A stretch of 63,965 nt of DNA, counting the filler, from Hausera hauseri (taxonomy: Eukaryota): the NCBI GenBank assembly GCA_046269625.1. It is 12 parts of 12 records of this genome, joined end to end, with 100 filler letters (N's around TTAATTAATTAA, not from the genome) between each part and the next. Parts side by side here need not be neighbours in the genome. Positions count along the whole stretch, not along the records: positions 23,346 to 28,355 come from JBJURY010362262.1; 11 more parts are not named here. One strand, given 5' to 3'. A program made the translations under genes and the position numbers. The notes beneath the pieces are model-generated. The model had not been told where the DNA came from, searched no databases, and saw only the letters and a program-made list of their open reading frames with translations. Positions 3,633-50,547 of the stretch are shown here, piece after piece (the stretch's first letter is position 1; every line of letters begins with the position of its first letter).

Positions 3633-3699
3633 GTAAATTTATCATTATAATGCTTACAAACAGACATACATAATCTAGCCCGTGAGTGAAACTTATTGT

Positions 3700-7621: not shown

Positions 7622-7909
7622 CACACAGGTTCCGTCTTGTAAATGGCATTTTTGATTCTCGGTATATAGTTTGGTGACATTGGAACATTACTTTCTGTAC
7701 TCGTATCTCCGATTTATAGAAATCTACGACCATTACATTCGATTCTACTCCTTTTCCGCTGTGGTATTCCGCTCCATTACAATGTCCATAATGCATGTCT
7801 AGCCTTTCAACCACTACTTTATGCCCTAATTATCTTTCCTGGTTGCATCTCTAGTTCCATACTATCCCATTTTAATCTTCCGGTTTCCCTGGCCTGCTTA
7901 CAATGCTGG
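7622..7909 (-). pseudogene. env glycoprotein fragment (copy D of the env-bearing element)
   Basis: QHCKQARETGRLKWDSMELEMQPGKII / VERLDMHYGHCNGAEYHSGKGVESNVMVVDFY; very similar to 14306-14525. Confidence 0.9.
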
Positions 7910-8149
7910 TGTGATAAAAGGTCAATAAACAGTACGGAAGTCGAATCATGACCGTACGGAAAATTAATTGGATAAATATCCGTTTGCGTAATTGTGTGTA
8001 TAATTTGGAACCTCTGTTTATGAATTAATTGAATTAATTATTAAATGTAAATTGGTTAAAATGGGATAATTCAATTAGAATGTAGAAATAAGGTACAACA
8101 ATTGTAAATAATTAGAAATCGGAATCCGGTCAGAATAGTATATAAGTAG
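7910..8149 (+). repeat. Possible LTR 5' part inserted into env copy D
   Basis: env homology stops exactly at a TGT start; the following sequence is AT-rich, non-coding, with TATATAA near 8139. No second copy to confirm. Confidence 0.3.
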
Positions 8150-8791: not shown

Positions 8792-8793
8792 TT

Positions 8794-8962: not shown

Positions 8963-10471
8963 TTGAGAACGAATACTGATATGTTAAAAGCCAACCTTGT
9001 ATTAAAAGATAACTCACTCATATGTGAAACACGTCGAAATATATATAGAGATACACAAAATGTAGATAAACGCTCAAATTCAGAGAATGGAATAAAGTTA
9101 GACGTCATCGAGCAAAACAAGCAATTCAAAATCCCACTTGAGAAGCATAAAGTCAATAAAACAAATTTAGAGAATAATATGGCAGCAATTAACCCTCCAG
9201 TAGCGCAAAAACTAAACATTTTTACTTTTGACTCTCTGAACCTGCCGGCATACGATGGTGATCCAGGCGAGCTTAATGAATTCTTGAGAACTTATAAATT
9301 GCACGCAGAAGGTGCTAGCCTTACTCCCGAGGTAATGATTAAACGCTTGTCGTTATATTTGAAAAATTTAGCCGCTGACGCTTATAGCGAGCTCACAAAC
9401 GACGAGAAGAAATCTTGGTCCTCCATAATAGGAGCATTAAATCGTAAATTATTTCCGACAGTAACGCCACAACAAAAGCTCATGGCATTTCAAAATATAA
9501 TGCCACAAAAGGGTGAATCAGTAACCGAGTTTGCATTTGCACTGAAGAAACTCGTTAATAGTTACGTAAGAACCTTATAAAGTGTTTGTGTAGCAAAAGC
9601 TAAAACAGAAGCAAAACGCGATGCTGCGGAAAAGGCAGCCCCACCAGATTTAGACGTCATGATGAAAACTCAATTGATTAATGGTATTTGGTCCCGAGAT
9701 TTAGTTAAACAATTGATTTTAGCCAGACCTGAGAATTTCGAGAAAACTCTGCAATTAGCCCAAGATTTAGAAACGGCACTCGATAGATACGCCAGACATA
9801 ACGAGAGAAATAATGATCGAAATGACCGTACCGATAGAAATCGGAATGACAATCGTGGAAGGAACGATAGACGATTTAATGGAAATAGAAATTATGAAAA
9901 TATAAATAGTAACAATGATTACAGAACTAGTCGAAACAATGGTTACGTTAACGACCGAAACATGAACAAGTCAAATTCTTACTCGAATAGAATTCAAGGA
10001 AACTACAAAGGTTCGAACTATTTAAATCGCGACGATGATAATCAAAATAACGATAGCCGAAGAAATGTAGATAGTACAAAAGGTTTGTAGAATCAGTACA
10101 ATAGAAGTACGAATAGACCTAAGTCACCTCTGAATGAAGACGGTCGACAAAGAGTCGTCAGAAACGGGAATTTAGTTTCTTTCACTTGTGTAAAAGAAGG
10201 ATATATTTCACGATCATGTCCAAACCCGCGTGTCGTTTCGTTTTCCGAGCCAAACAAGACTAGTATGATTAGAGTTAACGAAAATTTAGACACCAAGTAT
10301 AGTGTTCGCGGAGATACAGGCACTATTATGGACATACAAGACTTGCGAAAATTTCTAGACGTTCAACCTGAGACTACTAACCCACAAATTTTTATGGCTA
10401 GAAAAGAATACGGAGATAAGCTAAGACTATTAGAAGTATATCATGGTTTAGCAGAACCAGAAACGGACTAG
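8963..10471 (+). pseudogene. gag, copy A (capsid domain, N/R-rich linker, degenerate CCHC)
   Basis: LPAYDGDPGELNEFL...LYLKNLAADAY...QKGESVTEFAFALKKL. ORFs 8963, 9659 and 10265 share one frame separated by point stops. FTCVKEGYISRSC is the decayed knuckle. Confidence 0.9.
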
Positions 10472-13400
10472 GAGCCTGCGATAGCACCCAAGCGAATTGA
10501 TATGATCGCAAGAGTGTTCCGACAATCAATAAAATATCTGACCAACCAGGAAACTTGACAGAAGTCGACTTAGACGTAGAGCCTGAGTTCGCAGTTGAAA
10601 AAGTGGATAAGTCTACCGATTACGACACAGAAGAAAAATAATTTATGGAACCATTAATACTTAAAATTACGAAAAATAGAAGCCGTAGCTCTTTCCTAAT
10701 AACAAAACGAAGAAGTCGTTCACGCTCCAAAGTAACTACAGAGAAAATTGAAGGAACGGAAGATCCGAACATCGTTGTAGAAGGCGACGCGGACCATAGT
10801 TTGAATACACCAGAGATTGGTCTACTCTCGCCTGTCGGGTGGGGGGGAGTCTGTAGATTCAGTTAATAAAATTAGTGAGATTTGCCCACTTTCCATTAGT
10901 GAGGAATAAACGGAAAATATTGTTGATTTTGACCCAAGAAAGTGGAAAGTCCGACGTTCATGGAAAAATGCCGATGAGCTAAAGTAAATGAGAATTAGGT
11001 GTCACGACCCAGAAATCCTGCAGCGAAACTTAGAAAGGCTTAAGCAAATTAGCGAACAAGTAGATATATCCGGAAAAGAACAACAGTATACTGAGAAATT
11101 ATATAAAAGTCTAAAATTATGCAGTGAAGGCAAACTCGATGAAGCAATCGACTTAAAACAACCTGAAGAAGTATCATTTGAAACGTTGTAAAAATGGAAA
11201 CAGGAATTAGAATCATGGATTAAAAGTGGAGTCAAATTTTTGGAAGGATAGAGCAAAAACGAAGATAGTGTCAACGTAAAAGTCGCTAAAGCTGAAACAC
11301 TATTGTCCACCCTAGAAGCAAACCCGAAACTGAAGAGAGTAATCCGTAATTTATAACGTATGATGGGCGAAATTCGCTGTACAATGATTAATCGGCTTAG
11401 GGAAAAACCGGTTAGCCATCGAAGTAATATCGATTTGGAAATATTGGGCATAGACCCTGTGGATATTCCTTCCCTCGTTGAGATGATAAAAATCGCATTT
11501 GCTGTACTTAGACAATATACAAACCTAGAAAACCGAATCAAAACGGAAAATGAAAGGCGAGCGCCGATTTACAGCCGCAGAAACCGAATCGTGTCCCCAA
11601 ACCATAAGGAGATTCAATACGTAGTAAAGGCTTGTATAGTAGAATTGGACGAATATAAGGGCGAGTTTAGTTATGTCGGCCGGATTATGAATTTTCTAAG
11701 AGGGCCGGATGATGAGTTAAAAGATGCATATAAAATGCTAGATAAGGCTATAACGGCAAAGCCAGTAATTGCCAATCAATTGTCGAAGTAGTCCGAATTA
11801 GTAATGCGATTAAGCAAATTAGTGGAAAACCGAAAGAAAGAATTTCCAGAAAGCGAGCCTTCTGTAAAGAAACAGTTAAAAGAAAGCGCACGTAATTTAG
11901 ATACCATACTAGCAGAAATAGATATCCGAACGAGATTCGAAGCATTACGACGACTTAATTTTATGAAGAAGAAACATGAAGCGACGATACTGGAAGAGAT
12001 CTATAAAATGGTCGAAGAAATGAATTTGACAGAGAAGCGAAATATGACTTTCAATTTTTACCCAAGATTGAGAAATGTCCGACTAGAGGGACTTCAACAT
12101 CTAGCACATAAACCTATCAATGAGATTTCTGCTCAAGATATTGAAACTCTAGACATCTGTCCGGAAAACCGAGCCGCTTTAGCGTACGCGACCGGATGGC
12201 CGGATCGGATCAGAATTTCCATACCGAGTTGATAAAGATAAGAAATAACCAACGTCTTAGTTTTCAGGAATCTAAGTTCGTAAGGAAATTGTTGGATGCA
12301 ACGGATCCCGACTCAAAAGTCATAAATAAAATGTATGGGATAGCCTACTTATTGGTACAAATGGCGGAGATTAATGATGCGAAGATGATGCAATTGATGC
12401 CAAAATTACAGCAAGTAAAAGAAACATGTATCAGAACAAAACAAAGATCAACGAGACTAGATGAACTAGCAAAAGAACTCGAAATTTAACGAAAAAAATA
12501 TGCTTTTACGGAATCGGAAATCAAAAATAAGCGAGAATTCGTACAAAGATGGCAAAAGACGTAATTATTGAATTAACAGATTACCACGAAAAAGGACTCA
12601 TTAATTCTAATGAATTAGATGAATTACTGAAAATGATTCAGTATGCCTGCGGAAACGGAATAGGTTTCCGAACTATGCAGATGAAAGAAATACAACCAAG
12701 ATTGAAAGAAATTCGAGATAAAACGAATACAGCCTTAGTAGACTATGGACTTCCGGATGTTGGAAATGAACCAGAATGGGATGCGCACTTAGATGCAATA
12801 ACGGCCGAAAATACCATGACTCCAGTGCAACTAAACGAGGTAGAAACATGTCCGCAGGACAGGAGGTTCAATGTGGAGATGCTCCTGGATTCAGCGCTAA
12901 CTGAAAAAGATTTAATCGAACTAATTAAGGTAAATATTCCTGAAAATAAGTTAAGATAACTCATTCTGACTTTAATTAAATTATCTTCTGAGAATACAGT
13001 TTACAGCGCGGTGCTGAAACTTTTGATAAGGAAATATACTAAACCTGAGGTAACTACGAAAGTAAAAATATCATCCGAGTGGATGGATGAAAAAGAATAT
13101 GAACCAACCACTTATTCCTATGTAAGGGTCGTAACAGAACTGTTGATAAATAATGGTGGAACAAATGAGTTAAAATATAGATTCTACTTTAGAGATAAAA
13201 TACTGGACGATTTAGAACAGTTAATAGACCTTGGCATTATACCCGACGAAACAAAGTGAATAGTGGTAACAATAGCTAATGAGAAGATTAAAGAACAAAC
13301 CACACGTAAGGTTAAGGCAGAACAATGCGTAAGACAAATCATGGGAGTCGGAGATGCCGCCATGTATTTTGAGTGCTTACAAACGTATGAAGACAAGGAA

Positions 13401-13985
13401 CAATACGATAAGAATTTAGTGCCACTGAGTGAAACGATAACCAATGTCCCAAGACAGAAACGCCCAGTCGATAGACCTAAGAAGACACGAGAAGAAGCTG
13501 ACTATAATGGAGAATCGATTGGAGAATTGAGACAGATGCCGATTCCTACCTAATGAAGAATTAAGCGAATTCATGAAGAATTTAATATATGAATTGTAAA
13601 TTATTCAAGCCTTCGAGGCGACACATTAGACGATACAGAGAATGCGATATTTAATGCAGCTAGGATAATGAGAAGTTCACGTTTTAAATTATCAAAAAGT
13701 AACTTAAATGATGAATCGGTGATCGAGAAGATCATGGTGGAAAACACCGCTGAAGAATTAAGAAATGTATTAATGTGCTTAGCTATCAAAATGAACTCTA
13801 ATAGAGAAAATGAAATTAATAGAGCTACAAGCTTGGCACGTAGAGCGGCTAGAAAGCTACCCTGCGAAGTAAATTTGTCGAGATAATTCGATAATGAAGA
13901 AGACAAACCGTTCGATAATAGTAATAGTCTCGAAGATATGTTATGTAATTTGACAACGACAGATAATAGTAACCGGAAAAACGAA
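10472..13985 (+). pseudogene. Unknown ~1,150-aa K/E-rich region X, copy A
   Basis: Successive ORF pieces homologous to 24000-27710 and 49490-50447. Confidence 0.8.
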
Positions 13986-14525
13986 TCCAATTGGTTAATC
14001 AGCTTACTCACTTTGATAATGCTAATAAAGCAAATAGGTGCTGTTACCGTCTACGATTGCGATAAGTTTAAACTAGGACAGAAATATTCTCTAATGGACT
14101 TAGAAGTATGTGAGGACGCCAGACCACATAAAGTGGAGACAAAGGAGAAAAGTTACTTCTTATACCAAGATCAAGAATTAATATCGTTGGATGGGATGGA
14201 ATGTATGTTGAGACGATCTTGTAGCATTTTCACTGTGGTCTAATGCACGGACATTCGTCAATAATCAAACTAACAACTCCTCCAATTCCGATGAACTTGG
14301 AACGCCAGCATTGTGAGCAAGCCAGGAAAACCGGAAGATTAAAATGGGATAGCATGAAACTGGAGATGCAACCAGGAAAAATAATTAGAACACATAAAGT
14401 AGTGGTTGAAAGGCTGAACATGCATAATTGACAAAGTAATGGGGCCGAATACGCCACCGGAAAAGGATTAGAATTGAATGTACTGGTTGTAGATTTTTAT
14501 GAATCGGAGATGCAAGTACAGAAAG
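13986..14525 (+). pseudogene. Chuvirus-like glycoprotein N-terminus, copy A
   Basis: Hydrophobic signal WLISLLTLIMLIKQIGA, then VTVYDC...YSLMDLEVC...ECMLRRS..IFHCG..H.HSSI. Confidence 0.85.
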
Positions 14526-23245: not shown

Positions 23246-23377
23246 NNNNNNNNNNNNNNNNNNNNNNNNNNNNNNNNNNNNNNNNNNNNTTAATTAATTA
23301 ANNNNNNNNNNNNNNNNNNNNNNNNNNNNNNNNNNNNNNNNNNNNTTCTAGCACGCCTGGAGAATTTTGATAAGACA

Positions 23378-24007
23378 TTGCAATTAGCTCAGGACATAGA
23401 AATGGTATTGGATAAATATACCAGAAAAAACAACAGAAGTGATGGAAATAATGATCAAAGTGATCTAAGCGATAGAAATCGGAATGATAGAAACGCTAGA
23501 CGATTTAACAGGAATTATTGGGATTGTAATAAGAACGGTAACTATGATCACAAAAGTAATCGCTATGGTAATCGGAATTTTGATAATAGCCGAAATAGTT
23601 CATCTAGTAAACTAAACTACAATTCGGATAGACGCCTAGATAGCTCTAGAAATTTTAACAATGGAAATCGACAGAATGACAGCCAAAGTTATGATAGTCG
23701 CCAATATGGGGACTCCAGACAAGCCCCGCAACATCAGAATTACAATAGGAATTTGAGTAGATCGAAATCTCCGGTTAATGAAGACGGTCGACAAAGGGTC
23801 GGCAGAAACGGCAACTTGATTTGTTATACATGCGGGCAAGAAGGACACATAGCGAGATCCTGTCCAAACCCACGAAGCGTTTCGTTTGTTGAGCCTAGCA
23901 AAACCAATGTAGTTAAAAATGAAAATCTAGAAGCAATTTACGGTGTTCGTAAAGTCACAGGTATGATCATTGCGATACAAGACTTACGACGTTTTTTAAA
24001 GATCTAA
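23378..24007 (+). pseudogene. gag C-terminus with CCHC zinc knuckle, copy B
   Basis: CX2CX4HX4C motif after an N/R/D-rich linker. Confidence 0.9.
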
Positions 24008-27000
24008 CCTGACATTAAAGACACTAAAGTCTTAGTGGCCATAAACGAGTACGAACATAAGTTACGATTACTAGAAGTTTACCACGGCATGCCTAAACCG
24101 GAGACGGAATATGAACATTCCATTGCCCCGCCAAGGGTTATTGATATGGCACGGAAACAACATTCCTACGATAAACAAAGAGTTAGACGAAACAGGAAAA
24201 CTTGAGACTCCGGATGAGGTAGATTTAGATGTAGAACCAGAATATATGATAGAAAAGGAAACCAAAAGGCAGAAACCGACGAAAATAAAGAATTTTTGGA
24301 ACCACTAATACTTAAAATTACAAAGAATAGGGGCCGTTGTCCATCACTGAGACGAAAACGCAAGGATCTTTCGAGATCCCCAATGATTAAGGAGAAATCG
24401 GGCACAAAGAGAAAAACTAAAATCGCGTTTGACAGCAACACAGAGTTCGCTCTGAACACTCCGGAAATTAAATTAGTTACTCCCGGCGAAATGGATGAGC
24501 CAACGAAATCTGTAAATGAAATAAACGATATATATCCTTTACCTACTAACGGAGAAGAAACAGAACAGGAGTAGAAACTCGATACTGAAAAGTGGGAAAT
24601 CAAACGCTCGTGGAAAAATGCCGCCGAATTAAAAAGAATCAGAACAAATTGTCTCAACCCACAGGTAATGCAACAGAATTTAGACAAACTCAAAGCAATA
24701 AAGCAGCAAGTGGATATCTTGGGGAAGGAATAGCAGTTTGTAGATAGATTATATAATAAAATGAAATTATATAGTGAAGGTAAACTAAGCGAAGCTATAG
24801 ACTTAGATCTGCCTGAAGAAGTGGCAAAAGAAACACTAGTTCGGTGGGAACGTGAGTTAGGATTCTGGATGAAAAGTGAGATGAAATTCCCGGAGGCGTG
24901 GGATAAAACTATCCAAGACATTGAAGCTAGAATCAACCAAGCTCAGTCGCTATTAACTACATTAGAAGCCAACCCGAAATTAAAAGGAGTAACACGTAAT
25001 TTAGAGCGTGCCATGAATGGAATTAGATTTGTAATAGTCGAACGACTCAAGGGAAAACCGGTCAAGGAACGAGATACAGTTGATCGAGAGATGTTTGGTG
25101 TAGACTCAATAGGTATTCCACCCTTAATGGAGATAATAAAAGTCGCTTCTACGGCATCAAAACAATACAGAAGTCTGGAAAATCGTATTAAAAATGAGAC
25201 CGAAAAACGGTCGCAAATATATGGTCTGAGGAATAGAATTATGCATCCAAATAATGACGAAACACAGAAAATAACTATGGCTTGTATGCTGGAATTCGAC
25301 GAATATAAAGACGAGTTCGACTACGCCCGTCGGGTCATTGATTTTATTAAAGGTCCAGACGACGAGCTAGAAGACGTTCACAAAATGTTAGACAAAGCAA
25401 TATTGGCAAAGCCAGAAATCGCTAATCAGTTGAACGATTGATCTAAAGTAATAACAAGGTTGAGTAAACTAATAAACAGTCGAAAAAAAGAATTTCCGGA
25501 GAGCGAACCTACAGTAAAGAAGCGATTAGACGAAGACGCCCGAAAGCTAGATACGATGAAGGCAAAAATTGACATCCGAACTCAATTCGAGGCATTGCGT
25601 CGATTGGAATTTATGGCAAAGAAATAAGAAATAACGATACTAGATGATATATACAAGATTATTGAAGAAACTAACTTTATGCGGAACGCAATGCAACCTG
25701 CTACTTTTATCCGCGATTGAGAGATGTCCGCCTGAAAGGAATACGGTATTTGACAGCCAAGCCTGTCGAGGAAATCTCGATTCGAGACCTTAGAACCTTG
25801 GACTTTTGTCCCAAATATCGATCAATCGTTGAAAAAGCTGTGAAGTTCTTACACCAGCCACAAGAATAGATGGACGGAGCGGATCAAAGGCATCACACCG
25901 AACTAATTAAAATAAAGAATGATTCCCACCTTAGCTTTGAAGAAATCAAATTTTAAAAAAGTTATTAGATGAAATAGATCCAGATTCAAAAAGTATTAAC
26001 GAGATGTATGAACTAGCGCTGCTGATGGTGGAAATGGCGAAAATTAATGACGAGAAATTAAGACAATTGTTGTAGCAGATACAGCAAGTCGAAGAAACTT
26101 GCATTAAAACTAAACAGAGAGTGATAAAGTAAGACGAACTAACTAAAGAATTTGAAGTCTATAAAAACAAATATGCCCTTGCAGAGGCAGAAAGGTCTGA
26201 CAAGTCACAATTCTTACAGAGATGGCAAAGAGATGTCGCTTCCGACTAACACACTATCAAGAACAAGGACTGATTTCGGCTAAAGAATTATGTTCGTTGT
26301 TAACCCTGCTGCACCAAACTTCTGCTAATGGGCGTTGTTTCCGGATAACGAAAATGGTCCAAATGCAGCAGAAACTACAAGAACTCAGAAAAACCATATG
26401 GACCGCAGTTGTGGATAGACCAGCTGATGCACCGTCAAGAGCTATCAACTGCCGGGTAATAAGAACGAACCAAAATGGGAGGCATATTTAGATGCAATGA
26501 TTGCCGAAAACCCGAAAACTCCCATACGATTTAGCGGAACGGAGATATACTCTTCGGACCAAAAATTCAATGTGGAAATGTTTCTGGACCCAGCACAAAC
26601 CGAGAAAGATTTAACTAAGTTAATTAATGTAAACCTCACCGAAACTCCATTAAGACAGTTAGTCCCCACTCTAACCAAATTAGCAATCGAAGGTACCATT
26701 TATAGTGCGGCACCTAAGCTTTTAATTAAAGAATATGCTAAATCTTGTAGGAAAAGGTAGAGGAGACGATCATAGTAAAGGTAGCATCCGACAGGATGGA
26801 TGAGAAGGAACATGAATTTAATACGCGCTCTGTTGTGAGAGATGTATTAGTATGGATAAAGAGCAATGTATACACCAATGAGCTAAACTATAGACTTTAT
26901 TTTAGAGGAAGAATACTAGACGAATTAGAATTATTAATAGAAGTGGGAATTATTCCGGGTGGAGTAAACCGGATAGTGCTAACAATTCCTACCGACGAGA

Positions 27001-27437
27001 CAAAATAAGAAGCCATAAGGAAGGCCAGAGCGGAACAGTGGGTAGGTCGAATCATAGGAGTGCAAGACGCAGCAATGTATTTCGAATATCTGCAAACCGA
27101 CGAAGACAAGAGACAATACGATAAGAATCTAGCGCCAACCAGTGAGGTCGCACCAACTGTAATGAAACAGAAGCGTTCCATCGGTAGACCACGGAAAACG
27201 CAAGAAGAAATCGATTATAATGGAGACTTAATCAGAGAACTGAGGCAAATGTCCATATCAACCTTCAGCACCGATGACGAAGAAGTGAAGGAACTCATGG
27301 AAAAGTTGATACGGATAGTGAACCACCCTAGTCTCGGTGGCGATATACTGAGCGAAAAAGAAAAAGCTATATTTAACGCAGCCAAAACTATGAAAAGTTT
27401 TCGTTGTAAATAATCCAGAAGTACCCTAAATGATGAA

Positions 27438-28276
27438 ATGGTAATTGAAAAAATTATGGTAGAGAACACCGTAGAGGAGTTAAGGAAAGTGTTACTATAT
27501 TTGGCCGTTAAAACCAACCCGGTCCGAGATAACGAATTCAATAAGGCCATTAGCTTGGCGAGGAAGGCTGCCAGAAAACTACCACTAAAAGTGAATAGGC
27601 CTAAATTGTTTGAAAGAGAAGAAGAATGGCAAAATGGGTCCTTCCTTGGCAATAATAGAGTTGAAGACTTGTTACGGAACGTAACCAGAGATAATATAGG
27701 AAACGAGTCAAACTGGTTAATTAACTTCTTAATTATGATGATGTTAATAATACAGATGTGGGCAGTTGCAGTGTACGACTGTGACAAATTTAGACGCGGA
27801 CAAAAATACTCATTAATGGAATTAGAAATGTGCGAAGACGCGAGACCACATAAATTAGAAACAAAAGAGAAAAATTACATGCTATATCAACAATGCGAAC
27901 TAGTTACATTAGATGAAGTAGAATGTATGTTGCGACGATCTCGCAGCATTTTCCATTGTGGACTAGTACATGAACATTCACCCATAATCAAGCCAACCAC
28001 CCCACCAATCCCGATGAATTTAGAACGCAAGCATTGCAAGCAAGGTAGAGAGACGGGAAGAATAAAATGGGACGGCATAGAATTAGAAATTCAGCAAGGG
28101 CAAATAATCAGAGTGTATAAAGTGGCTGCTATGGTGCAGAATACGGCACTGGAAAAGGATTAGAGTCAAACATCGTAGTGGTAGACTTTTACGAAATCGA
28201 GATGCGCCTACAGAAGGTAATGTTTCATAGCGTTACTAAACTTTACACAGAAAACCATAAGTGCCACATTTCAGAT
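27438..28276 (+). pseudogene. End of X fused in frame to the chuvirus-like glycoprotein, copy B
   Basis: One ORF runs VIEKIMVENTVEELRKVL...NWLINFLIMMMLIIQMWAVAVYDCDKF...ECMLRRSRSIFHCG. Confidence 0.88.
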
Positions 28277-28459
28277 TGAAAGGCCTTGGGCAGACTCAGA
28301 AATTTCCGTGGAGTATATCCATTGGATAAAGTCCCCGACTATCTGCTCAATGGAGNNNNNNNNNNNNNNNNNNNNNNNNNNNNNNNNNNNNNNNNNNNNT
28401 TAATTAATTAANNNNNNNNNNNNNNNNNNNNNNNNNNNNNNNNNNNNNNNNNNNNTATT

Positions 28460-30560
28460 CTTCGATTAGCGTGATCCCACGTTCTTCGCTGTCGTTTACA
28501 CCTTTCAGCATTTTGACTTTCGCACACAACTTTTGATAGGTTGTTCAGCTTCCCATGCTCTGCATCCATTTAAACGAAACTCCTGGTCTCTATTCCTGTT
28601 GGGTTTAACAATTCGAATATACGATTAGTTCTCTTTGTTACGAATGTCCCTAAATCGTTGACGTCAGCATCACGAGCATGTCAGGCATCCACCCTATTCA
28701 TCGCCGATTGAGTCTTCGGAAGATGGAGGTTTGCCTCCATGGCTTTCTTCACATGTGACTCTGGAGAGAACAGTAAACACGGCATCATCAAGAGTTCAGT
28801 TTGGATACGTTTGAAGAAGTCGTAGCATCTGTGCATCATTCATAGGATCGTAAGAGGCCATTGGAGCCTCATGCCAGAATCAATCATACATAAGTGCAAC
28901 GAAGACAGCAAGTTCAGTCAGTTTTTTGCGCTCTCTGACAGTCAAAGTCAGTTGGCCTTTAAACAGTACAATCTTCATAGAGTAGATGGTCTTTGTCATC
29001 CACCTTGCATAGTACATCGCACCAGGTACATCCGCTTTGGCTGAGCCTCCACCAAAATAGACTAATCACAGTCGACGTAGGTCAAGATAATCATCTCTTC
29101 GCTATTGACAAGTTATGACATTTGTGTAGAAAGTCATCATTTCCTTCCCCTGGATTTCGGTGTCATAGTTGAAGAGTTTATCTTTTGCTGGCGCGAAATC
29201 CGTTTGTTGGATATCAGGCAATTTCGTCCGGAACTTCTTGAATAGGCTTACTTCAGGTCCTCCTTTTTCACCAAACAAATCCGTGAATATGCATCAAAGG
29301 ACGACTTTCATGTTGCGGTGGCAACAGCAAATATAGATAAGTTCATGACTAACGGCCTTTTCCATGAGAATACAAGCTCCTTCGTGAATACCAGTGTTGG
29401 ACGCTGTTGTATCAAAAACCATACCAATCACTGTATCGCGTAATTTCCACTCATCTAGAACTTCTAGGAAAGCAGCAGCTTGTTCACTAGCTGTTCCTTT
29501 TCCGATTTTTAGAACAACCAGCAGCTTCTCAGTTGCATAACCAGTCACGATCACAGCAACTCGGTTCACAGTTTTCTCAGCATCATCAATGTCAGGAAGC
29601 TGTTTGCCATTCAACTCTACAGAAAAACGGCCTTGATCTGCTACAGCCACCTCTTTGCTTACGGCCATCCTACATCTTATCGTGCTTCGAGACAATGCCA
29701 GGTCGTCAACAGGATGTCACCACAAACATAACTCCACGGTCAGACAAGTTGACCCTGTTCAAAGCATCAGGAACTTCTAGGTTTACTATTATATTCTTGG
29801 CTGACTTCTTGTACTTAGTCTTTCTGGCTGATCGTCATTCATCGAAAGATGTTGGAACTGGAACTGAAGTACATGTCCGTGTCACCATCGCCCATATCAT
29901 TACCTTCAGATAAAGTAAAAGCACTTCCTAGTCATTTTTTAAGTCATCATGTACTTTTAGCCATTGTGACCTTTCAGCCTTACAGTTGTCTTTGGCTTAC
30001 TCACGTGCTCTTTTCGTGGCCTCTTTTTGCAGCAGTTTGCGGTCCACTCCTGCCATGCTGCAGCTGGTAACGTCGATCCTTTGCATGATAAGGAATTGCT
30101 TATCCTCATCATTAGTCATTATCTCTGTCACGTTCTTAGTTGCAATATCAAATAATTTCTGGAGATCGTCGCTGAATGATTGTTTTTTAACCCTGCAGCT
30201 TTTCAATCACTGTTCTTCTTCAGTAGCTGATATTCATAATATAACTTAGAGTTTTTCTGCGGGGTCGATTTGCTGTATTGGGAGTATAGCTTTCTTCCAT
30301 ATCTCCAAAAGCTCAATGATGGTAAGGCGAATACTTTCTTTCACATTATGATGCTGTTTCTGATGATGATAGAAGACACATTTGTACCAATTCTTCATTA
30401 TTTTCCCAGACGTTTTGATTACAGTCGAGAATACATATGTTATTCATGGAATTCTTATGCAATGAACAGATACTTTTTATGAACTTCTTTTGCTGTACAG
30501 AGACCAAGTCAAGCACTTATGCAAGTTACGTACATTTTGTGGGACGTGTCTCAGTGCGTT
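28460..30560 (-). pseudogene. hAT-like DDE transposase (hATm/Cc8K15.2-like), decayed
   Basis: LQKLFDIA; VFDTTASNTGIHEGACILME...CCH; RDDYL; YARWMTKTIYSMKIVLF; VNDSEERGITLIEEY. Confidence 0.8.
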
Positions 30561-37499: not shown

Positions 37500-38251
37500 T
37501 CATTCTTTTTCTCTCATACAAGAGTAATTGGATTTTAACATTATGGCATCGGGCAACGAATACCTGAATTTGAACGATACGCTATTATATGTAGAAGTCA
37601 TTGTTAAAAAGGACGCGGCAACGGTTCTCGCTGCAACAGACACTGTCACACCGACCAATTACCTTTTCCTCACACTTTTCCAGGAGGCTTCACTGACTCT
37701 AAACAGCGTCAAAATCGAAGGCAACACAAGTCTATACAGTATTAAAGCACTCATTGAAACGGCTCTGAATTACACTACTAACACCAAAACGACTCACTCG
37801 ATGAGAACTATCGGATACGATGCCACAGCGTCAAACCGTCAGGCGTGGGTGGCAGAATCAAAAGCACTTACCATGAGTGGACCGCTGTACTTTGACTTTT
37901 TTAATCAGCCGAAATATCTACTGCCCGGTGTTAAAGCCATGATTCGGCTCAAACGCGGCGACAGTGTCCTTTGTTTGAAAACCACCGTTGCAAATCTCAA
38001 ATCCATACTGAAAATTACCGAGGACGATTATACGTACGTTTAGTAAAGTTAGAACCATCTGTGCTCATGGGATATCGATTGGGCTTGGAAACGCAAAATG
38101 CCTGTAACCCGATACAACCCGCAGAACTTGCCTTTTACACCATACTTAAAGGTTTGACTACGTTTTGAAAAGATGCACTGTTTGGTGACATGCGATTGCC
38201 GAAATTTGTGCTCGTTACATTTCAAACGACTGTTCAACAAACGGGCAGTTA
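37500..38251 (+). pseudogene. Polinton major capsid protein (double jelly-roll, PY)
   Basis: DFNIMASGNEYLNLNDTLLYV...PTNYLFLTLF...YSIKALIETALNY...DFFNQPKYLLPGV...LYVRLVKL. Confidence 0.9.
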
Positions 38252-39177: not shown

Positions 39178-42100
39178 AGTCCGATTTCGAAATAAAAAAA
39201 ACTAAATTCCATATATAAATTATTGTATATGTCTAAGAGTAGTGGCCATTTTTCTTTCCGATCACTACGTAATGCAATCCAATCGTATTCTTGTAAAATA
39301 TTTGCTCCTCCATGAGTTGAACCGGTTACTCGAACATTTAGACTGGAATGAAATCTTGTAAGGTTGGAAATAATAATCGGCAATTCAACATTTATGGCCC
39401 ATACAAGTCCCCGTATGTTAGTTGAGAGGTGGCTAACAACTAACATGTGAGCTCGCAATTCCAATTCCATGTCATCTTGATAAATAAATCTTTCAAGCCA
39501 TCCAACGAACATATATCATCATCTATGTCTCTTGACGCTTTATTTATAGTTACCATGCATTCCTGAACATCTCCCCTAAACATTAAGAAATCAAAACTAT
39601 CTTTATGTTCTGACATTAATCCGTATGGATGTGGAGGTAATATCAATTCTCTTGATTTATATTTTCCTTTGTTCGACATTCTAAAATCGTCTGGATCATT
39701 AAATACTACAGTTCGCAGTTCATAACTCGTAAAGTAGTCCATTAAGCGTTCGTCTAAAGTTCTACAGTATTCGAGGTTATATTTTTCTTTCCAGGACTCA
39801 CAGAAAAAATTAACAGAATTATTATTGGCTAGTTGTTCGAAATGAATTGGCAGATATAAAAGCCGAGAAAATAACATGTACCCAGAGAATCCCATATGCA
39901 AAATATTGAAAGCTTCCATTGTTAAATTGTTGACAACTGCATCATCTTCACAAGCTTCTTGTAAAACGTCAATTGCTGCTTCTGATACTCCAGGGTCAGT
40001 GTCATGTATTTGCTTCAATAAAAAGCTTACTCCCCCATTAGCAAAATATGGTAATTTTGCCCTTAAAAGTACTCTGAGAAATTTTGTTGTATATTGACGA
40101 ATGCACACAATGGGTGAATTGACGGCAACTGTCAACAGATTTAGGTCTATAGATGGACGCGTATAATCAAGACACCCGAGTATCAAATTTGCATAAACAT
40201 CACTGGATCCATAATCGAGTAACAGTTTAAAAATATGTAAAAATTTATATTCTTCCAAAAGTGCTTTGCCGAATTCTGTTGAAGTCATTCGACCAAGAGG
40301 AGGAAACTTATACGAATTACATTTGTAATTAAATTCATATTCGCTAAATGATGAATCTTCAAACATCGCGTCAGTAGTTGCATATATTATAAGTTGTTTA
40401 TAATCATATGCTACTCCGTATTTCAGACATTCACGAAATGATCTATTCATAAATTTTAAAAACCGAACCAACTCTTCACTAATGGTCGAATTTTTGGTTG
40501 ATTGAACTAAACAATTAATTATATCGATAAGCACAAAATTGGCTTTTAAAGAAAAACTCCATGTCAGCTGCAGAGGTACAAAATACTGTTCCGCGTAACT
40601 TAAAGAGTCCATAATGGACTTGTCGGATTTTGGATTTTGAATAAAAAACTCCAACAGCCTTTTCAATATTCTGTTGATTACATCTCTAACGAAGTTTGCA
40701 GACATTGTAGAACTTTGAAGGGCTCTTGCAAAGATCATTAATAAATCCCAGTCCCATAAATTGTAAAATTGTTTAGAATGATATAAAGTGTCATCTAAAA
40801 CATGACTGAAACGTTCAGCGAGTTCCAGTAAAACATTGAACTTTTGACTTTTACTATTCACTGACGAACTTTTCTTCGATGCTAAACTTGTAGGGACGTA
40901 GCAACTTTCAAGAATATTATCTATGTTTGCCGGATGAATAAATGTCATAGAAACGGATAGTCCGTCATTTATAGTACTTATTGGCTGAATAATAGAATTC
41001 ATCAAAGGAGTGATATCAAAAAGCTCCTGTTCAAGTAAACTGTGGATTTGATGCATCCATAATATGGTTTTTTTCGATCTAGGATGAGTGAAAAGTGTAG
41101 CTGTATCAATTTTATTAAGAAGTGGATGATCTGAAGAAAGTAGAACCGAAGCTTTATAAGAAAGTATGACTAGAAGAAGACCTGCTCTGACAGACTCATT
41201 TTCATTTTGCACAGCAGTTGCAAGAGCTTCAAGAAGATTATTTTGAACAAATATGCCTATAACAATGACGTGGGAATTGTCAAGAATTTTGATTCGATTT
41301 GCGGATAAATAAGGTAAACAATCGTAACATTGTGTCACAAAAGATTCATCATCGAGTCGCCAAGACGGTATGTATTTGCCGTTTTTTTGATCTTCGATTG
41401 ACTTAGTACAAGTACGGAAATCCTCAAATTCTGGAGGGGGTCGAAAAACGTGGAATAACTGAAATAATAAAACTAAAATTCTCTTCCTAATATTAGTAGA
41501 GCCCATTTTCAAGAGACTAGTTAAAAACAAAATTGTCTGGCTGCTACGTCCATATAAATAGAGAAATCCTGGCCAAGAGTGAAGTATTTTCAATAAAACA
41601 AAAATAGAATGTGTTTCAACTTCCCCATGATCATCATTGAAAGCCCTCGAATCCTCTTTTGGAACTGACGAAAGATCATACAATATTGAAAATGGTGCTA
41701 AGGATCTATGGAAATATCCATCGGGTATGTGACTCCGAAATAACGGGTGGGAAACAAGCTTACGCAGCAACAAAAGGACTGCTTCGATTATGTTTAAATC
41801 AAAATTAATAATTAGACCTTCTTTGATGAAAATGGCTGTCTGAAATGCTTCTAGAATTTGACTCTGATGTATTAAGTTGGGAATAAAATTGGTAAGATGA
41901 AATAATATCATCAAGGTAGGTCGTAATGCTGGGTCAATCGGTGTAATATTGCATTTTGAGCATGTTACACAACTACCAACCATACAATTTACAATATAAA
42001 TTAGAATGAGTTTTGGCAGAATCAAAACTAATCTAAACAGCAATCTCATGGCCGGAATTCGCTCAACGTCCCTTTTATTATAATACTGTGGAGAAACGGC

Positions 42101-42801
42101 ATCGTGATACGATAGATCCAAGGATTGTCTTAGGAAAAATTCAACTATCATTTTCACACAAATTTCCGAATGACGGCTATTTAAAACATGATATCGTAAA
42201 CATCGCAATGTTGCAACTCTCGGTGATTTATATTGACTCCATAAACAATATTTAATTAATGAGTAAATGGATATCATAAAATGGATATCATAGACCAATA
42301 CATTCAAATAAGAAATACATGTTTCCAAATCATATTCAAAGTCATCATTGCAAAATTGTGATAAAATTTTGGCATAACTAATTACAGCATCATTAGACTT
42401 TTAATTTTTGCTAAATCAAAACTATTTTCCTTATCACTACGTCCTACTTTTATTACTACATTGATAAATGAATCTGATTTATCACATATTGTGAACATGA
42501 CAAAAGTGTAACGATTTGGGTTGTTGAAAGGTAAATTTACATTAATAGGCAGACAGTGATGTGGGTAATAGTCGCAGTGTGTTCCAAAAACAAAAGTCTG
42601 ACTAACCAATGTCGTTCGATTAAAAATCACGGATTTGTGTCCCGAAATGCATGAAAGCCAATCGTATGATTGCTGACACCAATTATAATGATCTGCGGCC
42701 GAAGAGTTCTTAAAATTATTAGCAAAAAGTATAATAATGTCAGGTTTAACCTGCATTTTTGGGTGCATGGAAAACGACTTTGATATTTCCAGAGGCACCA
42801 A
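39174..42801 (-). pseudogene. RICTOR: RICTOR (mTORC2 subunit), divergent; a 962-aa ORF with frameshifted flanking pieces
   Basis: VATLRCLRY; ERIPAMRL; ILHSWPGFL; IRQYTTKFLRVLLR; LLKQIHD...AIDVLQEAC; LPPHPYG; in the next frame ELRAHMLVVSHLST...SLNVR...GANILQEYDW...WPLL. Frame changes at ~42390 and ~39480. Confidence 0.9.
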
Positions 42802-45468: not shown

Positions 45469-46158
45469 TCACCAACACCAATGTCTCAGTTCTTTTTGGT
45501 TCTGAGGTTCCATACAGTCAGAAATTTTGTTCAGCAATGATTTATCTGGTTTCGATCCTCCTTCGCCAACTATATGACCAAGGTAGGATACGGCATTTTG
45601 AGCCCATTTACATTTCTTTGGGTTTAGCTTTAATCCAGCTTGTTCTAGTCTCATTAGAGTGTCCTCAGTATCCTTTATATGCTCTTTTTCGTCTTTTGAT
45701 GCAGTCATTACATCGTCTATGTACGCAAATGCATTTTCAAGTCCCATTAGCAACTTATTCATCATCCTGGTAAATATGGCTGGTCCAGTGGTAATTCCAA
45801 ACGGCATAACGTTGAATTCGTATATGCCATCATGAGTTTTAAACGCAGTCTTATAACGATCTTCATCTTCAATTTCTACCTGCCAATATCCGGATTGTAA
45901 GTCCAGAGTAGTGAACCATTTTGCTCCAGAGAGCCTATCTAGAGCTTCTTTCACAGATGGTAAGGGAAAAGAATCTTTCATTATGACAGTATTTAATGCT
46001 CTGTAATAGATACAAAATCGATGTTTCGTGGTTTCTTTCTTTCTGACCATAAGAATAGGTAAGTACCATTATCTAATACTAGGTCGAATTATATCGGCCT
46101 TTAACATACGTTTTACTTCTTTAGTTATTTACAGTCTTAGATAATGCAGTGGCGGATA
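45469..46158 (-). pseudogene. Ty3/gypsy reverse transcriptase (truncated before RNase H)
   Basis: EVKRMLKADIIRPS; FCIYYRALN; LDLQSGYWQV; KTAF; VMPFG; AYIDDV; LKLNPKKC; YLGH. Same frame as the protease ORF. Confidence 0.95.
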
Positions 46159-47376
46159 CTATTTTGGCAATTTCTGTTCCTCGAGATCAATTTCATAGTT
46201 AGAACCAGGCTTTTTCTTAAGAAGTATAGTTAATTTCAATGCCTTTGCGCGACCAATATTTTCTTTGTCTTTTGCAATAATTAATTTATATCGACATAAT
46301 AATTCGTAAAACTGGCAATAAGCTTCTGGCGAAAACTTCGTATCGACGTGTGGTGGAAATTCTGCGTATTTATACGGTTTCTCTTCGACCGTTATCGCTG
46401 ATACCTTGTAGGTTTGTCCTAGAGTAGTGTTAGCATATAACTTTACTGGAGTTTGAGCATTATTCACTATCCTCACAGGTATTCGACCGGATGCTACTCG
46501 GGTTAATATATTGCTTAATATTATATTCGGGTTTAGCGTTTCTTTCGGCTCGAAATATACTGGTATATCGTCGTCTTGACAAATTTGTGCAAATATTAAC
46601 AATTCCGTTCTAGGCGGAATGTTCTTGTCAACCGGAATCCATACTTCTCCGGTTTCTCTTTCTTTATTAACTTTAGTCCCTTTTATCGGTCCGAGCTCGA
46701 TTAACTTCGAGGTATTTAGATCTATCGCGACGTTTGTTAGACGTCTTAATACATCACATCCGATTACTACGTCGTCTGTTAAATGTTCCATTATAGAGAA
46801 TTCATGTTGGAACGTCTGTCCCATTATTTTAAGACTAGATTTCCATTTGAATTTTGGTCTTGATTCTTGTCCGAAAGTTCCTATACGTCCGGGATCGGTT
46901 GCAAGTGGCGGTCTTAATTGACTTCGCAGTGTTTTCGGTATCGATCCGTCTTTTATAAATGATCTCTGTGATCCGGTATCTACTAGTGCGTAGACTTCCC
47001 AATCGTCAATACTAATTTTTGCGAAAGGTCTACCTTCCTTTATCTTAGGTTGTTTAGTGACGGATATCTTGTAACCATTTATATTAATTTCTGGTGCTTT
47101 ATTTTCGGCTACCTGCCGTAGTTCCTCAATAGGATACAATCCATTATTCACACCGTTTTCGTTGTCTCGGTCCGGTGTATTGCTTAGCGGTTCTCGGTTG
47201 TCTTGATTACGGAAGGATTGCATTCGTTGATTATCCCAATTTAATGAGTTGGTTTCTACGCTCCGTGAAATCCTTGGAGAGTATATTATCTTGCGATCAT
47301 CTGCTGGCCAGCGACATAATTCGGATTTTTCTCTGGTTCGGTACATTTTTCGTAGCATGCCGTATTGTTTTGTCAC
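46159..47376 (-). CDS. Aspartic protease plus beta-rich PR-RT linker
   Basis: ALVDTGSQRSF; DVVIGCDVL; IPPRTE...IPVRIVN...VKLYANTTLG. Confidence 0.92.
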   Translation of the reverse strand: MTKQYGMLRKMYRTREKSELCRWPADDRKIIYSPRISRSVETNSLNWDNQRMQSFRNQDNREPLSNTPDRDNENGVNNGLYPIEELRQVAENKAPEININGYKISVTKQPKIKEGRPFAKISIDDWEVYALVDTGSQRSFIKDGSIPKTLRSQLRPPLATDPGRIGTFGQESRPKFKWKSSLKIMGQTFQHEFSIMEHLTDDVVIGCDVLRRLTNVAIDLNTSKLIELGPIKGTKVNKERETGEVWIPVDKNIPPRTELLIFAQICQDDDIPVYFEPKETLNPNIILSNILTRVASGRIPVRIVNNAQTPVKLYANTTLGQTYKVSAITVEEKPYKYAEFPPHVDTKFSPEAYCQFYELLCRYKLIIAKDKENIGRAKALKLTILLKKKPGSNYEIDLEEQKLPK

Positions 47377-49516
47377 TTCATAGGGATCTTCATAACTGAA
47401 AGGCTTCCGATATATTTCTGAACTATAGGGTTAAGAGATCTCTTATCACTGTCTTCGTATTGCGGCGCCGAAGGGGGCAACATTGGTAAAGGCGGCCTAA
47501 GCGCCTTATGATTGCTTGTCTTGGAGACCGCGTCTCCTCCCTTAGGCTCATCATCATCCGAATGGTTTCTTCGGACTTTTGTATTTCTTTGTCTTATAAA
47601 AAATGTAGATTTTCTCTTTCGTTTTCGATTGTAGTAACTGACATGTCTCTCCACGTCGCTTTTTCATTTGTTTTCTTTGTAAGCTTTCAGAAATTTTCCA
47701 AACGGCGTTATAATTGACGTTAAGATTTTACACGAAAATCCGGTTAGAGTAAATATTTCATATCCATTTATGATAGATTGTATTATAGTCTTTACGAGTT
47801 GTACCATAAAGTAGATGGCTAAAAATCCTGATGCAGCTTGTCCGAAAATTAAAAATTTTCCCCAAATCTTATATAATATTTCTGTGGTGACTCTTTGATA
47901 ATGGTTAACACCAAGTAGGGACTCACATTTTGCTTGATAGCGAGTATCGTCCATCACAGTCGACATGGCTCTATTTAGCTCATGCGTGCGCTGTCGAGGA
48001 AAACTGTCTAAAAGCTTCAATTTCCTTTGGTCTGTAAATCCCTTTACTCGTGGTGTCGGCGAATTTATCATCTGTTATACCTTTTAGTAAGTTTGTTCCC
48101 GTTAATTTGCCAGGTGTAGCTATTATTCCTCCATTTGGCAGACTTACCCAATCTGTCTCGCTTCTTTTAAACATAGGTTTGCCTAAACCTGCTTTGCAAT
48201 CTTTGTGTCGCGTTTTCTAGAAGGACTCTAGTGAGTGGCATAGCCAATCGGGGTACATTTTGATATATGACTGGCAATTCTTGTATACAACGTTTTTCTT
48301 CTACGTTTAAAGATACGTCTCGTTTTTCGCATTCGTAGGTCAACAGGACTTCTCCGGTGACTCTTCCGAAAATACCTTCCTTCATCGGAATTACAGGTGA
48401 TGCTAGTTCTGGGTTCGCGTAAATTAAGGCCAATTTGGTTCTCATGATCTCCATATCCAATTTACAATCGTTTGCAATTATTTTGTAATATAGCTCTGCT
48501 AACCCAATTTGTCCTTTATAATAGAAGAAGTCGTCCCTATTCTTTAAATAATCTTCTATTCTTACATCTTGTGTTTCCAAATTGAAGGTAGTTATTGCGG
48601 CCTCTGCCACAAAGAATGCCTCGTAATTGATGGCATACATTACTACGTTGCACCGAGAAAGCATTTGTTTTTTTATGAATTTCAATCCGTGATCCTCGGA
48701 TATCAGTATCGTGGGTGTGGAATGCTCAGCGACGTTCTTTCTTGGTCTGGCGTTATTGTCAGTTGTCTCTACATACCTTTTTCCTGTGGTTTCATTGAAA
48801 TTTATTTCCTTGATTTTAATAAAGTTACAATCGTTCATAAGTGGTGGAGCCCAAATGACTATTGAGTTTCTGAAAGTGCAGGCACCATCTTGGTTATGGC
48901 ACTTTTGGTTTTCGGTACGCGTTTTCGTAATACTATGGTACATCATCTTTTGGTTCCTCATTTCTGTTTCGTAGAAATCGACCACTATTATTCCCGATTC
49001 TCTTCCTTTTCCGGTATCATATTCACCTCCTTTACAGTATCCGGTGTGCATATCCAGTTTTCCGATTGCTACCTTATATACTCGATTTATTTTTCCTGGT
49101 TGGGCCTCTAACTCCATCCCATCCCATCTTAATCTTCCAGTTTCTTTAGCTTGTTTACACTGTTGTCTATCTAAATCTATGGGTATTAGCAGTGTCGTCG
49201 GTTTTACTATCGACGATTGTCCGTGTATGTTTCCGCAGTGGAAAACACTTCGCGATCGTCGCAACATGCACTCTATTCCGTCTATTGCAATCAGTTCACG
49301 TTGCTGGTATAAAAAATACTTTTTCTCAATGGTTACTAACTTGTGAGGTCTAGCGTCTTCGCATAATTCCAAATCCATCAAGGAATATCTTTGTCCGACC
49401 TTAAACTTATCGCAGTCGTATACGGTGATTGCACCGAGCTGTCTTATTAACATCATAAGTGTTATTAGTTTAATCATCCAGATTGATTCACTGTCTCGCA
49501 TTGAGTTAGTTGGCAT
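47373..49516 (-). pseudogene. Full-length chuvirus-like class III fusion glycoprotein (~700 aa; two frameshifts, one stop)
   Basis: Signal peptide; ITVYDC..SLMDLELC; ECMLRRSRSVFHCG; GYCKGGEY; LYYKIIANDC; GIFGRVTGEVLLTYEC; CIQELPVIY; PLTRVL; TM region IWGKFLIFGQAASGFLAIYFMVQLVKTIIQSIINGYEIF..TGFS.KIL. Confidence 0.85.
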
Positions 49517-50547
49517 TAAATTTCTTACAACATCTTCGATTCCGGTGGTTGGCCTGTTTCCATCTTTGTCATCAAATAACTTGGATCAATTTATCTCTCT
49601 AGGTATCTTCCTAGCAGCTTTTCGGATAAATCCAATAGTTCTATTGACTTCATTTTCCTTTCGCGAATTCGTTTTGATTGCCAAGTACAATATTACTTTC
49701 TTTATTTCTTCCTTAGTATTCTCTACCATAATTTTCTCGATTAGAACTTAGTCTGATAAGTTGCTCTTATTCATTTTCAACAGAAATGTTCTCATAATTC
49801 TCGCAGCATTATATATTGCTTTTTTTTTCGTTTATCATCTTGTCTCTCGGTCCTGAATAGTTTACTATTTTCATAGTGTATCTCAGCAGATCGCTTAACT
49901 CTTCGTTCTCGGAGTTAATAGCGGGCATGGATAATTGCCTTAGTTCTCGTGTCAGGGCTGCACTTTGGTCAATATCGTTACTTATCTTTTTCTCGACCTT
50001 CCAACTAGTCGTTTCTGTTTCGGCGCAGTTGGTGTTGCTTCGCTTATTGGTACTAGATTCTTATCGTATTGTTCCTTATCTTTCTCACTCTGGAGGTAGT
50101 CAAAATACATGACAGGGTCTCTGACTCCCATAATGCGTCCTACGCAATGTTCATCTCTTACTTTTCTCGCAGCCTCATCTTTTGTCTGTTCGTCGGTAAT
50201 TATGGCCACTATTTGATTTGTTTCTTCTGAAATAATTCCAACATCTGTTAGTAGTTCGGGTTCGTCCAGTATTCTACCTCGAAAATATAAACGGTAATTT
50301 ACTTCATCTTTTTCACCGTTTCGCATTATTCATTGCTTTACTGCTCCAGCCGATGTCGTTGTACATTCATTTTCTTATTCTTCCATTTCTTCAGCCGATA
50401 TTTTTACATTAACCGTCGTTTTGGGTTTAGCTTTTAAGAATTCAGCGNNNNNNNNNNNNNNNNNNNNNNNNNNNNNNNNNNNNNNNNNNNNTTAATTAAT
50501 TAANNNNNNNNNNNNNNNNNNNNNNNNNNNNNNNNNNNNNNNNNNNN

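Follow-up and report, generated by a model that had tools for sequence, protein, structure and literature searches.

The window analysed here, 63,965 nucleotides (filler included) of the Hausera hauseri assembly GCA_046269625.1, consists of twelve contigs of 4-8 kb joined by spacers of N, and carries decayed copies of one Ty3/gypsy retroelement family whose order, as read from sequence, is gag-X-env-PR-RT (PR, protease; RT, reverse transcriptase). Our analysis demonstrates that X, the large region between the CCHC knuckle of gag and env, is a real coding block which evolved under strong purifying selection, and almost certainly it formed part of the polyprotein. The evidence tips the balance slightly towards a once-functional, now broken accessory cargo of the type found in the planarian Burro/GYPSM1 elements, made up of a predicted helical scaffold and a likely ubiquitin-like domain, the latter of which would have docked on the host ubiquitin-proteasome system. 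The gag-X-env-pol layout as such is already published for Burro/GYPSM1 and is not new.

Results

Self-comparison of the window recovered four pieces of the element family (copies A to D). The copies and the parts of X are as follows (window positions, strand in brackets):

8963-14525 (+): copy A, by self-comparison
23346-28355 (+): copy B, with the feature under study, by self-comparison
45472-50447 (-): copy C, by self-comparison
7634..7917 (-): copy D, a short env fragment of the A/B/C family, by blastn/tblastx against A, B and C
10235..13988 (+): region X of copy A, 1,250 codons with 19 breaks, by frameshift-aware alignment to B
49502..50446 (-): last ~310 codons of X in copy C, from the contig edge, by alignment to A and B
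23873..24590 (+): X1 of copy B, a conserved segment of ~90 residues after the knuckle, followed by a linker of acidic and basic character (EPLILKITKNR, RRKRK); ratio of nonsynonymous to synonymous substitution rates (dN/dS) 0.08
24591..26750 (+): X2-X3 of copy B, a helical/coiled-coil block of ~720 residues, by AlphaFold2 (AF2) model, heptad signal and dN/dS
26766..26987 (+): likely integral ubiquitin-like (beta-grasp) domain of copy B, without C-terminal diglycine, by profile matches
~13053-13275 (+): the ubiquitin-like domain in copy A, by alignment to B
~50416-50195 (-): the ubiquitin-like domain in copy C, by alignment to B
27165..27197 (+): basic patch, with QKR-x3-R-x-(R/K)K kept in each of the three copies, resembling a nuclear localisation signal (NLS) and not an AT-hook, by copy comparison
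27201..27650 (+): X5 of copy B, a helical domain of ~140 residues right before env, by AF2 helices with predicted local distance difference test (pLDDT) scores of 40-60

Measured from the end of the knuckle to the env signal segment by frameshift-aware alignment, X comprises 1,275 codons in copy B and 1,250 in copy A (about 1,250-1,280 overall). An earlier, sequence-only reading of copy B had rightly described a K/E/L-rich block between knuckle and env (E 10.8%, K 10.1%, L 9.4% in B) and a large insert that is unusual for a typical gypsy gag. Its length of about 1,150 residues was an underestimate: its interval 24008..27710 alone amounts to 1,234 codons, and X starts ahead of it at ~23873. The motifs it quoted all lie within the window, but the first three occur in two copies (A and B) and not in three, because copy C begins at the contig edge and retains the last ~310 codons, the only part of X common to all three copies. 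GPDDEL stands at 25352 in B and 11702 in A, FEALRRL at 25586 in B and 11936 in A, ELNYRLYFRGRILD at 26880 and MYFEYLQ at 27075 in B, and QYDKNL is found in B, A and C; MEPLILKITKNR turned out to be the version of copy A, where copy B has LEPLILKITKNR. Amino acid identity between the copies is 51-60% by segment. In three long stretches there are 28-42 off-frame stops against 2-5 in frame, so the open frame of X is not due to chance.

Codon models were fitted to 1,110 of the 1,232 aligned codon pairs of B and A (stops and pairs near gaps or shifts removed) and gave a dN/dS of 0.105 (dN 0.34, dS 3.25; likelihood-ratio test against 1 = 470; p < 1e-100). This ratio, whose determination among the copies the earlier reading had proposed, is far from 1 and marks X as a selected coding region. 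Sub-regions of X range from 0.02 to 0.16 (0.11 and 0.16 for X2 and X3), the gag tail is at 0.11 and env at 0.07; constraint on X was thus as strong as on gag while the family diversified. Comparisons with copy C gave 0.03 (B-C) and 0.005 (A-C), values of which the direction alone is reliable, dS being saturated. A frame-blind nucleotide alignment shows codon periodicity, with mismatch at codon positions 1/2/3 of 0.28/0.22/0.55 and 0.26/0.25/0.53. X has the base composition of gag, env and pol, and not that of a Rictor open reading frame in the window (A fraction 0.39 in X, 0.39 in gag, 0.38 in PR-RT, 0.31 in the Rictor frame), which favours long residence over recent capture.

None of the three copies is intact: X has 19 breaks in B, 19 in A and 6 in the part present in C. 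By these numbers the copies fall short of the inclusion filter (at most five stops) given in the available text of PMC13524379, a statement that concerns the copies and not the family. One public sequencing run, possibly the window's own source, holds 7,457 contigs that align on copy B, 3,511 of them less than 90% alike and together covering 30 of 30 bins; the family is therefore abundant and diverged in that run. For 4 of the 19 breaks in B, a break of A lies within 18 bases. Where A and B have a stop at the same codon, the stop codons differ and nearly all of the run depth (68 contigs) is unlike B, so that a programmed stop is unlikely. One frameshift pair is of opposite sense; in the pair that lies 3 bases apart the sense is the same, and about half of the run depth differs from B by an indel. 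A programmed frameshift was also considered and set aside: among the rows listed, indels of run contigs come within 6 bases of 4 of the 7 frameshifts of B and within 24 bases of a fifth. Altogether, the breaks in A and B look like independent decay, the frameshift pair 3 bases apart being the least certain case.

The earlier reading had recognised no domain in X. A ubiquitin fold at 26766-26987 of copy B is nonetheless very probable, and ELNYRLYFRGRILD likely represents the core of an integral ubiquitin-like domain. The profile of the C-terminal half of X, run against PDB with no preselection for ubiquitin, returned four matches, all of them ubiquitin-like domains of ubiquilin type and aligned over the full 70 residues. 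A narrower profile of 83 columns returned 25, of which 24 were ubiquitin-fold proteins (ubiquitin, ubiquilin, ISG15, DSK2, eS31; best E 0.0058, over 70 residues); three other X profiles yielded 0, 4 and 4 PDB matches, none ubiquitin-like, with a best E of 0.08. Pfam reported UBX (E 0.004) and ubiquitin (E 0.015), in one copy each and under the cut-offs, and in the ESM Atlas (recognition 3030) all five named family sets were ubiquitin or PF11976 (Rad60-SLD), at 0.90-0.91. The order of elements in the AF2 model, strand-helix-strand-strand-helix-strand, also fits ubiquitin, at a pLDDT of about 30. X very probably has between gag and env the Ubi2/SUMO-like (PF11976) component that characterises Burro/GYPSM1, with weak scores on which four methods agree.

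In the alignment no diglycine follows the last strand in any of the three copies (the GG of copy B precedes that strand and is absent from A and C), which points to an integral domain and not to a cleavable modifier of ubiquitin type. The closest counterparts, ubiquilin-1/2/3 and DSK2 (PDB 2nbv, 1j8c, 1wx8, 2klc), align full-length over ~70 residues and likewise lack a terminal diglycine, and RLYFRGRIL of X matches the LIFAGKIL / RLIFAGKQL of integral ubiquitin-like domains. Unlike them, the domain of X is internal to a retroelement polyprotein, with no UBA or STI1 domain detected. Presumably Tyr occupies the position of ubiquitin Ile44, and Arg/Lys that of Lys48. Visual inspection had suggested another ubiquitin-like domain directly behind the knuckle, but Pfam and profile searches lent it no support.

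Outside this domain X comprises ~1,150 residues, mostly predicted to be helical and without a homologue in the databases searched. X1 found no fold match in Pfam or profile searches. The first 400 residues of the helical block (24497-25696) were modelled as entirely helical (pLDDT 44.6), X2-X3 shows a heptad signal, and VIA matched this model to generic bundles and hairpins only (Z 7-8.5), with no Smc match in Pfam. A short helical stretch separates the ubiquitin-like domain from the basic patch, which the earlier reading had correctly called basic and which all three copies keep, although its RS-rich wording applies to A alone. Similarly, its AT-hook-like GRPRK is exactly at 27183-27197, with DRPKK at 13470 in A and GRSRK at 50002 (-) in C; an AT-hook it is not, the core RGRP being absent from X of A and B and from the GRSRK of C. 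A second basic patch lies at ~24330-24410 in B. X5, with the lowest dN (0.28), is the most conserved part of X, and neither Pfam, PDB profile, Atlas nor VIA searches gave it an identity. Pfam, PDB profile and Atlas searches gave no grounds for seeing a Bcl-2 or death fold in X5 or in 26240-26416. Net charge is near neutral over most 50-residue blocks, Cys makes up about 1%, no Cys/His finger pattern occurs in X (C..C is absent), and a hydropathy scan detected no transmembrane segment inside it.

Searches with X and env yielded no credible homologue. The N-terminal half of X had none among 5,073 candidates from 5.8 billion proteins (longer lengths only) and two matches among 1.84 billion representatives, both tandem-repeat junk and discarded; the profile of the C-terminal half had none among 7,996 candidates. 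No match was confirmed in metagenome contigs (C-terminal half of X and env as queries) or in viral contigs (the same and the N-terminal half of X). Env of copy C also came back empty (0 of 4,196 candidates, longer lengths only), so that this lineage is probably missing from the collections, and the lack of matches is weak evidence for novelty of X. Alignments of X are two to three copies deep, which limits search sensitivity. Both AF2 models, which cover parts of X on either side of B 25697-26753, are of low confidence (pLDDT 44.6 and 38.6, from 2 and 6 rows). Foldseek found nothing for either at E <= 0.001, and VIA gave generic helical matches only (best Z 5.8 and 8.5), the Tom1 and GGA1 GAT rows at Z 7.2-7.8 lying within noise.

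The remaining parts of the element were located as follows:

8963..9820 (+): gag of copy A, capsid region with one stop; Pfam Retrotrans_gag PF03732, E 0.007-0.008, under the curated cut-off
13989..14525 (+): env signal segment and env start of copy A, cut by the contig end; 71% amino acid identity with env of B, hydropathy peak 2.06
23348..23872 (+): C-terminal part of gag of copy B, with an N/R-rich linker and one CCHC knuckle; PF00098
23822-23863 (+): CCHC knuckle of copy B; Pfam PF00098, E 6.6e-08
27711..28355 (+): internal signal segment and start of an env of herpes simplex virus (HSV) gB/chuvirus type, copy B, cut by the contig end; PF24664, E 2.2e-09, hydropathy peak 2.31
47667..49501 (-): env ectodomain of copy C and one predicted transmembrane segment (~47825); PF24664, E 4.4e-33 and 3.2e-17
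45472..47430 (-): protease, then reverse transcriptase of copy C, downstream of env; RVP, E 2.1e-06, and RVT_1, E 1.5e-37

Copies A and B show the order gag-knuckle-X-env, and copy C shows X-env-PR-RT; the full order was pieced together via the overlap of the last ~310 X codons and the env start. X runs into env in one frame and without a common stop in all three copies (in B the env start has the frame of X4-X5), and from gag to X the breaks of A and B are solely of opposite sense. When the copies are added up, the element measures ~3,000 codons between the beginning of gag and the end of RT. Its env belongs to the HSV-gB/chuvirus type, with matches in B and C to PF24664, the Monjiviricetes fusion glycoprotein family. 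Copy C has an aspartic protease (RVP) followed by a reverse transcriptase of Ty3/gypsy type, whose top PDB match is Ty3 RT (E 2.5e-39), far above retroviral RTs. In copy C the contig ends behind RT; no RNase H, integrase or long terminal repeats (LTRs) lie within the contigs of A, B and C.

Three observations concern the flanks of these genes. Copy C alone has a PSAP motif (PPSAPQY, 47463-47474 (-)), which lies after env and ahead of protease in what is predicted to be the cytoplasmic tail, where the frame is uncertain; we take the motif to resemble a budding late domain of P(S/T)AP type. Copy C also has a beta-type insert of ~150 residues that separates protease from RT (46300-46740 (-)), dUTPase-like in our view, for which Pfam and PDB profile searches gave no dUTPase match. 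In copy A, a short Cys-rich frame precedes gag and is in phase with it (8555-8845 (+), three stops, blank in Pfam); it could be a decayed zinc-finger accessory gene.

Discussion

Burro/GYPSM1 comprises giant gypsy-like LTR retrotransposons, Burro1-4 of the planarian Schmidtea mediterranea and a relative in Dugesia tigrina; according to the available text of PMC6431247, the ORF1 of 4,873 amino acids encodes gag, Smc, MATH, Ubi2/SUMO-like (PF11976) and BCL-2 parts, an in-frame env, protease, a dUTPase-like part and RT. The cargo B-IAP of Burro1 has been reported to protect stem cells (PMC13465017, available part). The Hausera element, like Burro, has an env of mononegavirus-glycoprotein type that follows gag and precedes protease, and a long insert from knuckle to env, here of predicted coiled-coil character and with a likely ubiquitin/SUMO-like domain (PF11976 being among the Atlas matches). 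It is unlike Burro in its ~3,000 codons, against 4,873-5,140 amino acids for Burro ORF1, in its single CCHC knuckle where Burro has two or three, and in the decay of all copies. Because of the differences in size and knuckle number, the undetected apoptosis modules and a comparison made by layout and not by sequence, we would file the element as compact and Burro-like, not as Burro proper, its kinship being one of layout; that X belongs to the same lineage of cargo as Burro's is nevertheless probable, if with clear reservation. No Burro sequence was among the results of the searches with the two halves of X and env of C. Novelty of the layout is thus not supported, since a long in-frame gag-env insert with coiled-coil and Ubi2/SUMO-like parts is described in PMC6431247 (available text); for architecture, the level at which the two were compared, this comes near to what the earlier reading had named as its refutation, a match to a well-described gag extension. 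A ubiquitin-like domain in a retrotransposon polyprotein was not found outside PMC6431247 in the literature searched; the supplements of PMC13524379 may describe regions like X.

A second group with the same gene order is the GAG-ENV-POL errantiviruses of HSV/gB type, catalogued in Nematoda, Bryozoa and Platyhelminthes by Chary and Hayashi (PMC13524379, available part). The Hausera family agrees with them in its Ty3/gypsy RT, its gB/chuvirus-type env, its many copies and, joined over copies, its order of gag, env and pol. It differs by X, as an intervening region between gag and env is not described in the available part of that paper. Of 30 rows examined in its supplementary file 1, four (Smed_5, Smed_6, Bsto_2, Cpal_7; rows 119, 126, 1452 and 1453) measure 16.9-18.0 kb against 11.6-15.3 kb for the others. 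They exceed most of these elements by ~2.5-3.5 kb, close to the size of X, and could have an X-sized insert.

As far as the anatomy can suggest, the active element would have made Gag-X-Env(-Pol) as a single chain. The internal signal segment of env would anchor this chain in the endoplasmic reticulum (ER) with Gag-X left on the cytosolic side, cleavage by signal peptidase would release the env ectodomain, and the single transmembrane helix of env, the one clear segment in copy C, would bring Pol back to the cytosol. The nucleocapsid is the inward end of retroviral Gag, and X, which follows it, was likely cleaved from this end by the element's protease to give accessory proteins, the last of which would remain tied to the env signal segment. 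Ubiquitin-like domains of ubiquilin/Rad23 type act as interaction surfaces; the one in X, without a terminal diglycine, may likewise have been such a surface rather than a cleavable tag, docking on the host ubiquitin-proteasome machinery. That modulation of the host ubiquitin system was the main role of X has a somewhat less than even chance in our judgement.

Several results weigh against this account. Every ubiquitin-fold match is weak, no Pfam cut-off was passed, each Pfam family was hit in one of three copies, the 83-column window was picked after the first ubiquitin match, and 21 of the 30 ESM Atlas matches are unnamed clusters. Foldseek and VIA did not recover ubiquitin from the AF2 model, because its pLDDT is only about 30 there. 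Of the domains of Burro, neither MATH, Bcl-2, BIR, ankyrin nor the dUTPase-like one was picked up by Pfam, PDB profile, Atlas or VIA on these shallow alignments, and the NWG motif, checked for Bcl-2, is absent from X. The span from gag to RT occurs in no single copy, the joined copies being ~51-65% identical; frame continuity from env to protease is broken in copy C, and the signal segment of that copy stays below the hydropathy threshold of 1.7. Synonymous divergence has come close to saturation or reached it (dS 2.2-14 for B-A, up to 55 for A-C), which makes dN/dS rough. Finally, two frameshift pairs and two stop pairs of A and B lie no more than 18 bases apart, among them one stop pair at the same codon and one frameshift pair 3 bases apart.

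A different emphasis, less likely but serious, is that X was mainly a structural assembly layer, a substitute for matrix or tegument which stayed attached to the env signal at the cytosolic surface of the ER and recruited capsids to Env; X would then replace the matrix domain missing from gypsy Gag, its ubiquitin-like domain being an adaptor within the scaffold. In all three copies X passes straight into the env signal segment without a change of frame, X5 next to this segment has the lowest dN in X, the helical and heptad character is long, and a single chain would deliver Gag, X and Env in 1:1 amounts. Moreover, the gypsy Gag of Cer1 is described as lacking matrix (PMC10309623, available part). 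On the other hand, the position of X after the nucleocapsid leaves no covalent link of capsid to membrane unless there is cleavage, Foldseek and VIA found no matrix-like fold, and most of the GAG-ENV-POL elements in the available part of PMC13524379 are ~3 kb shorter (26 of 30 listed at 15.3 kb or less with flanks) and apparently manage without X. Accessory cargo and assembly scaffold are not mutually exclusive.

It is improbable, though of some consequence, that X holds an independent set of cargo, non-homologous to Burro's, in which ~1,100 residues of new helical domains and a captured ubiquitin-like domain formed a giant cytosolic leader of Env that recruited capsids and host ubiquitin/proteasome machinery for budding into the ER. 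If true, gypsy elements would have a matrix-free route to enveloped particles, which would explain the position of env between gag and pol.

More doubtful still is a nuclear RNA-export or nucleic-acid-binding protein like CERV of the Caenorhabditis elegans element Cer1. CERV is a gypsy orphan accessory protein that shares gag sequence and has a basic NLS and a host-like fold, to which X can be likened, and it is such a factor although it lacks a recognisable RNA-binding motif; it is, however, made from a spliced mRNA, with 517 amino acids, a G-protein-like domain and a Cys loop, none of which is seen in X (PMC10309623, available part). The two basic patches, the second kept in all three copies, agree with this reading; the missing AT-hook core and Cys/His finger pattern and the near-neutral charge over most blocks disagree with it.

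We regard as very unlikely that X is a viral block of nucleoprotein (N), phosphoprotein (P) and matrix (M) genes which, along with the glycoprotein next to it, was captured from a negative-strand RNA virus and joined in frame. The env does belong to the Monjiviricetes fusion family, X is contiguous with it, and its size would fit; but Pfam gave no match to viral N, P or M, Foldseek against BFVD none at E <= 0.001 for either low-confidence model, the searches of viral contigs found no relative, and a ubiquitin-like domain stands where the matrix gene would be expected. Of the origin first proposed for X, a captured viral or host protein, the viral half accordingly found no support, and at least one host-type module (the ubiquitin-like domain) is likely. 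That X amounts to neutral filler, or that its frame arises merely from the reading of decayed DNA, as its pseudogene copies and the lack of homologues in the searched collections might suggest, is refuted for practical purposes by dN/dS, by codon-position periodicity in a frame-blind alignment and by the even cover of the 7,457 diverged run contigs over all 30 bins.

If the cargo reading is right, the Burro-like gag-cargo-env-pol retroelements gain a compact lineage, and a ubiquitin-like domain would seem to recur in their cargo, even where apoptosis modules are undetectable. X is the obvious candidate for how a Gag-X-Env-Pol chain threads the membrane and becomes enveloped without a matrix domain.

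Other features of the window

A second, unrelated and decayed gypsy element (144-4527 (-)) with matches to RNase H and integrase looks env-less and is C-rich, unlike the X family. Between it and the env fragment D, an intron-free frame of tetratricopeptide repeats (TPR; 5995-6780 (-)) has weak ANAPC3/TPR matches in Pfam; we take it to be IFT56/TTC26-like, and it may be a host mRNA beside an element end. The Rictor frame (39440-42400 (-)) is uninterrupted over 986 residues, without an intron and with three Pfam RICTOR domains, and is possibly a retrocopy or a very large exon. Decayed frames at 28700-30250 (-) and 62592-63053 (-), with only a spurious weak Pfam match at 29297-29716, look like DNA-transposon transposases. 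A frame of 171 residues at 37528-38043 (+), blank in Pfam, resembles in our estimation a capsid protein of Polinton/Maverick type.

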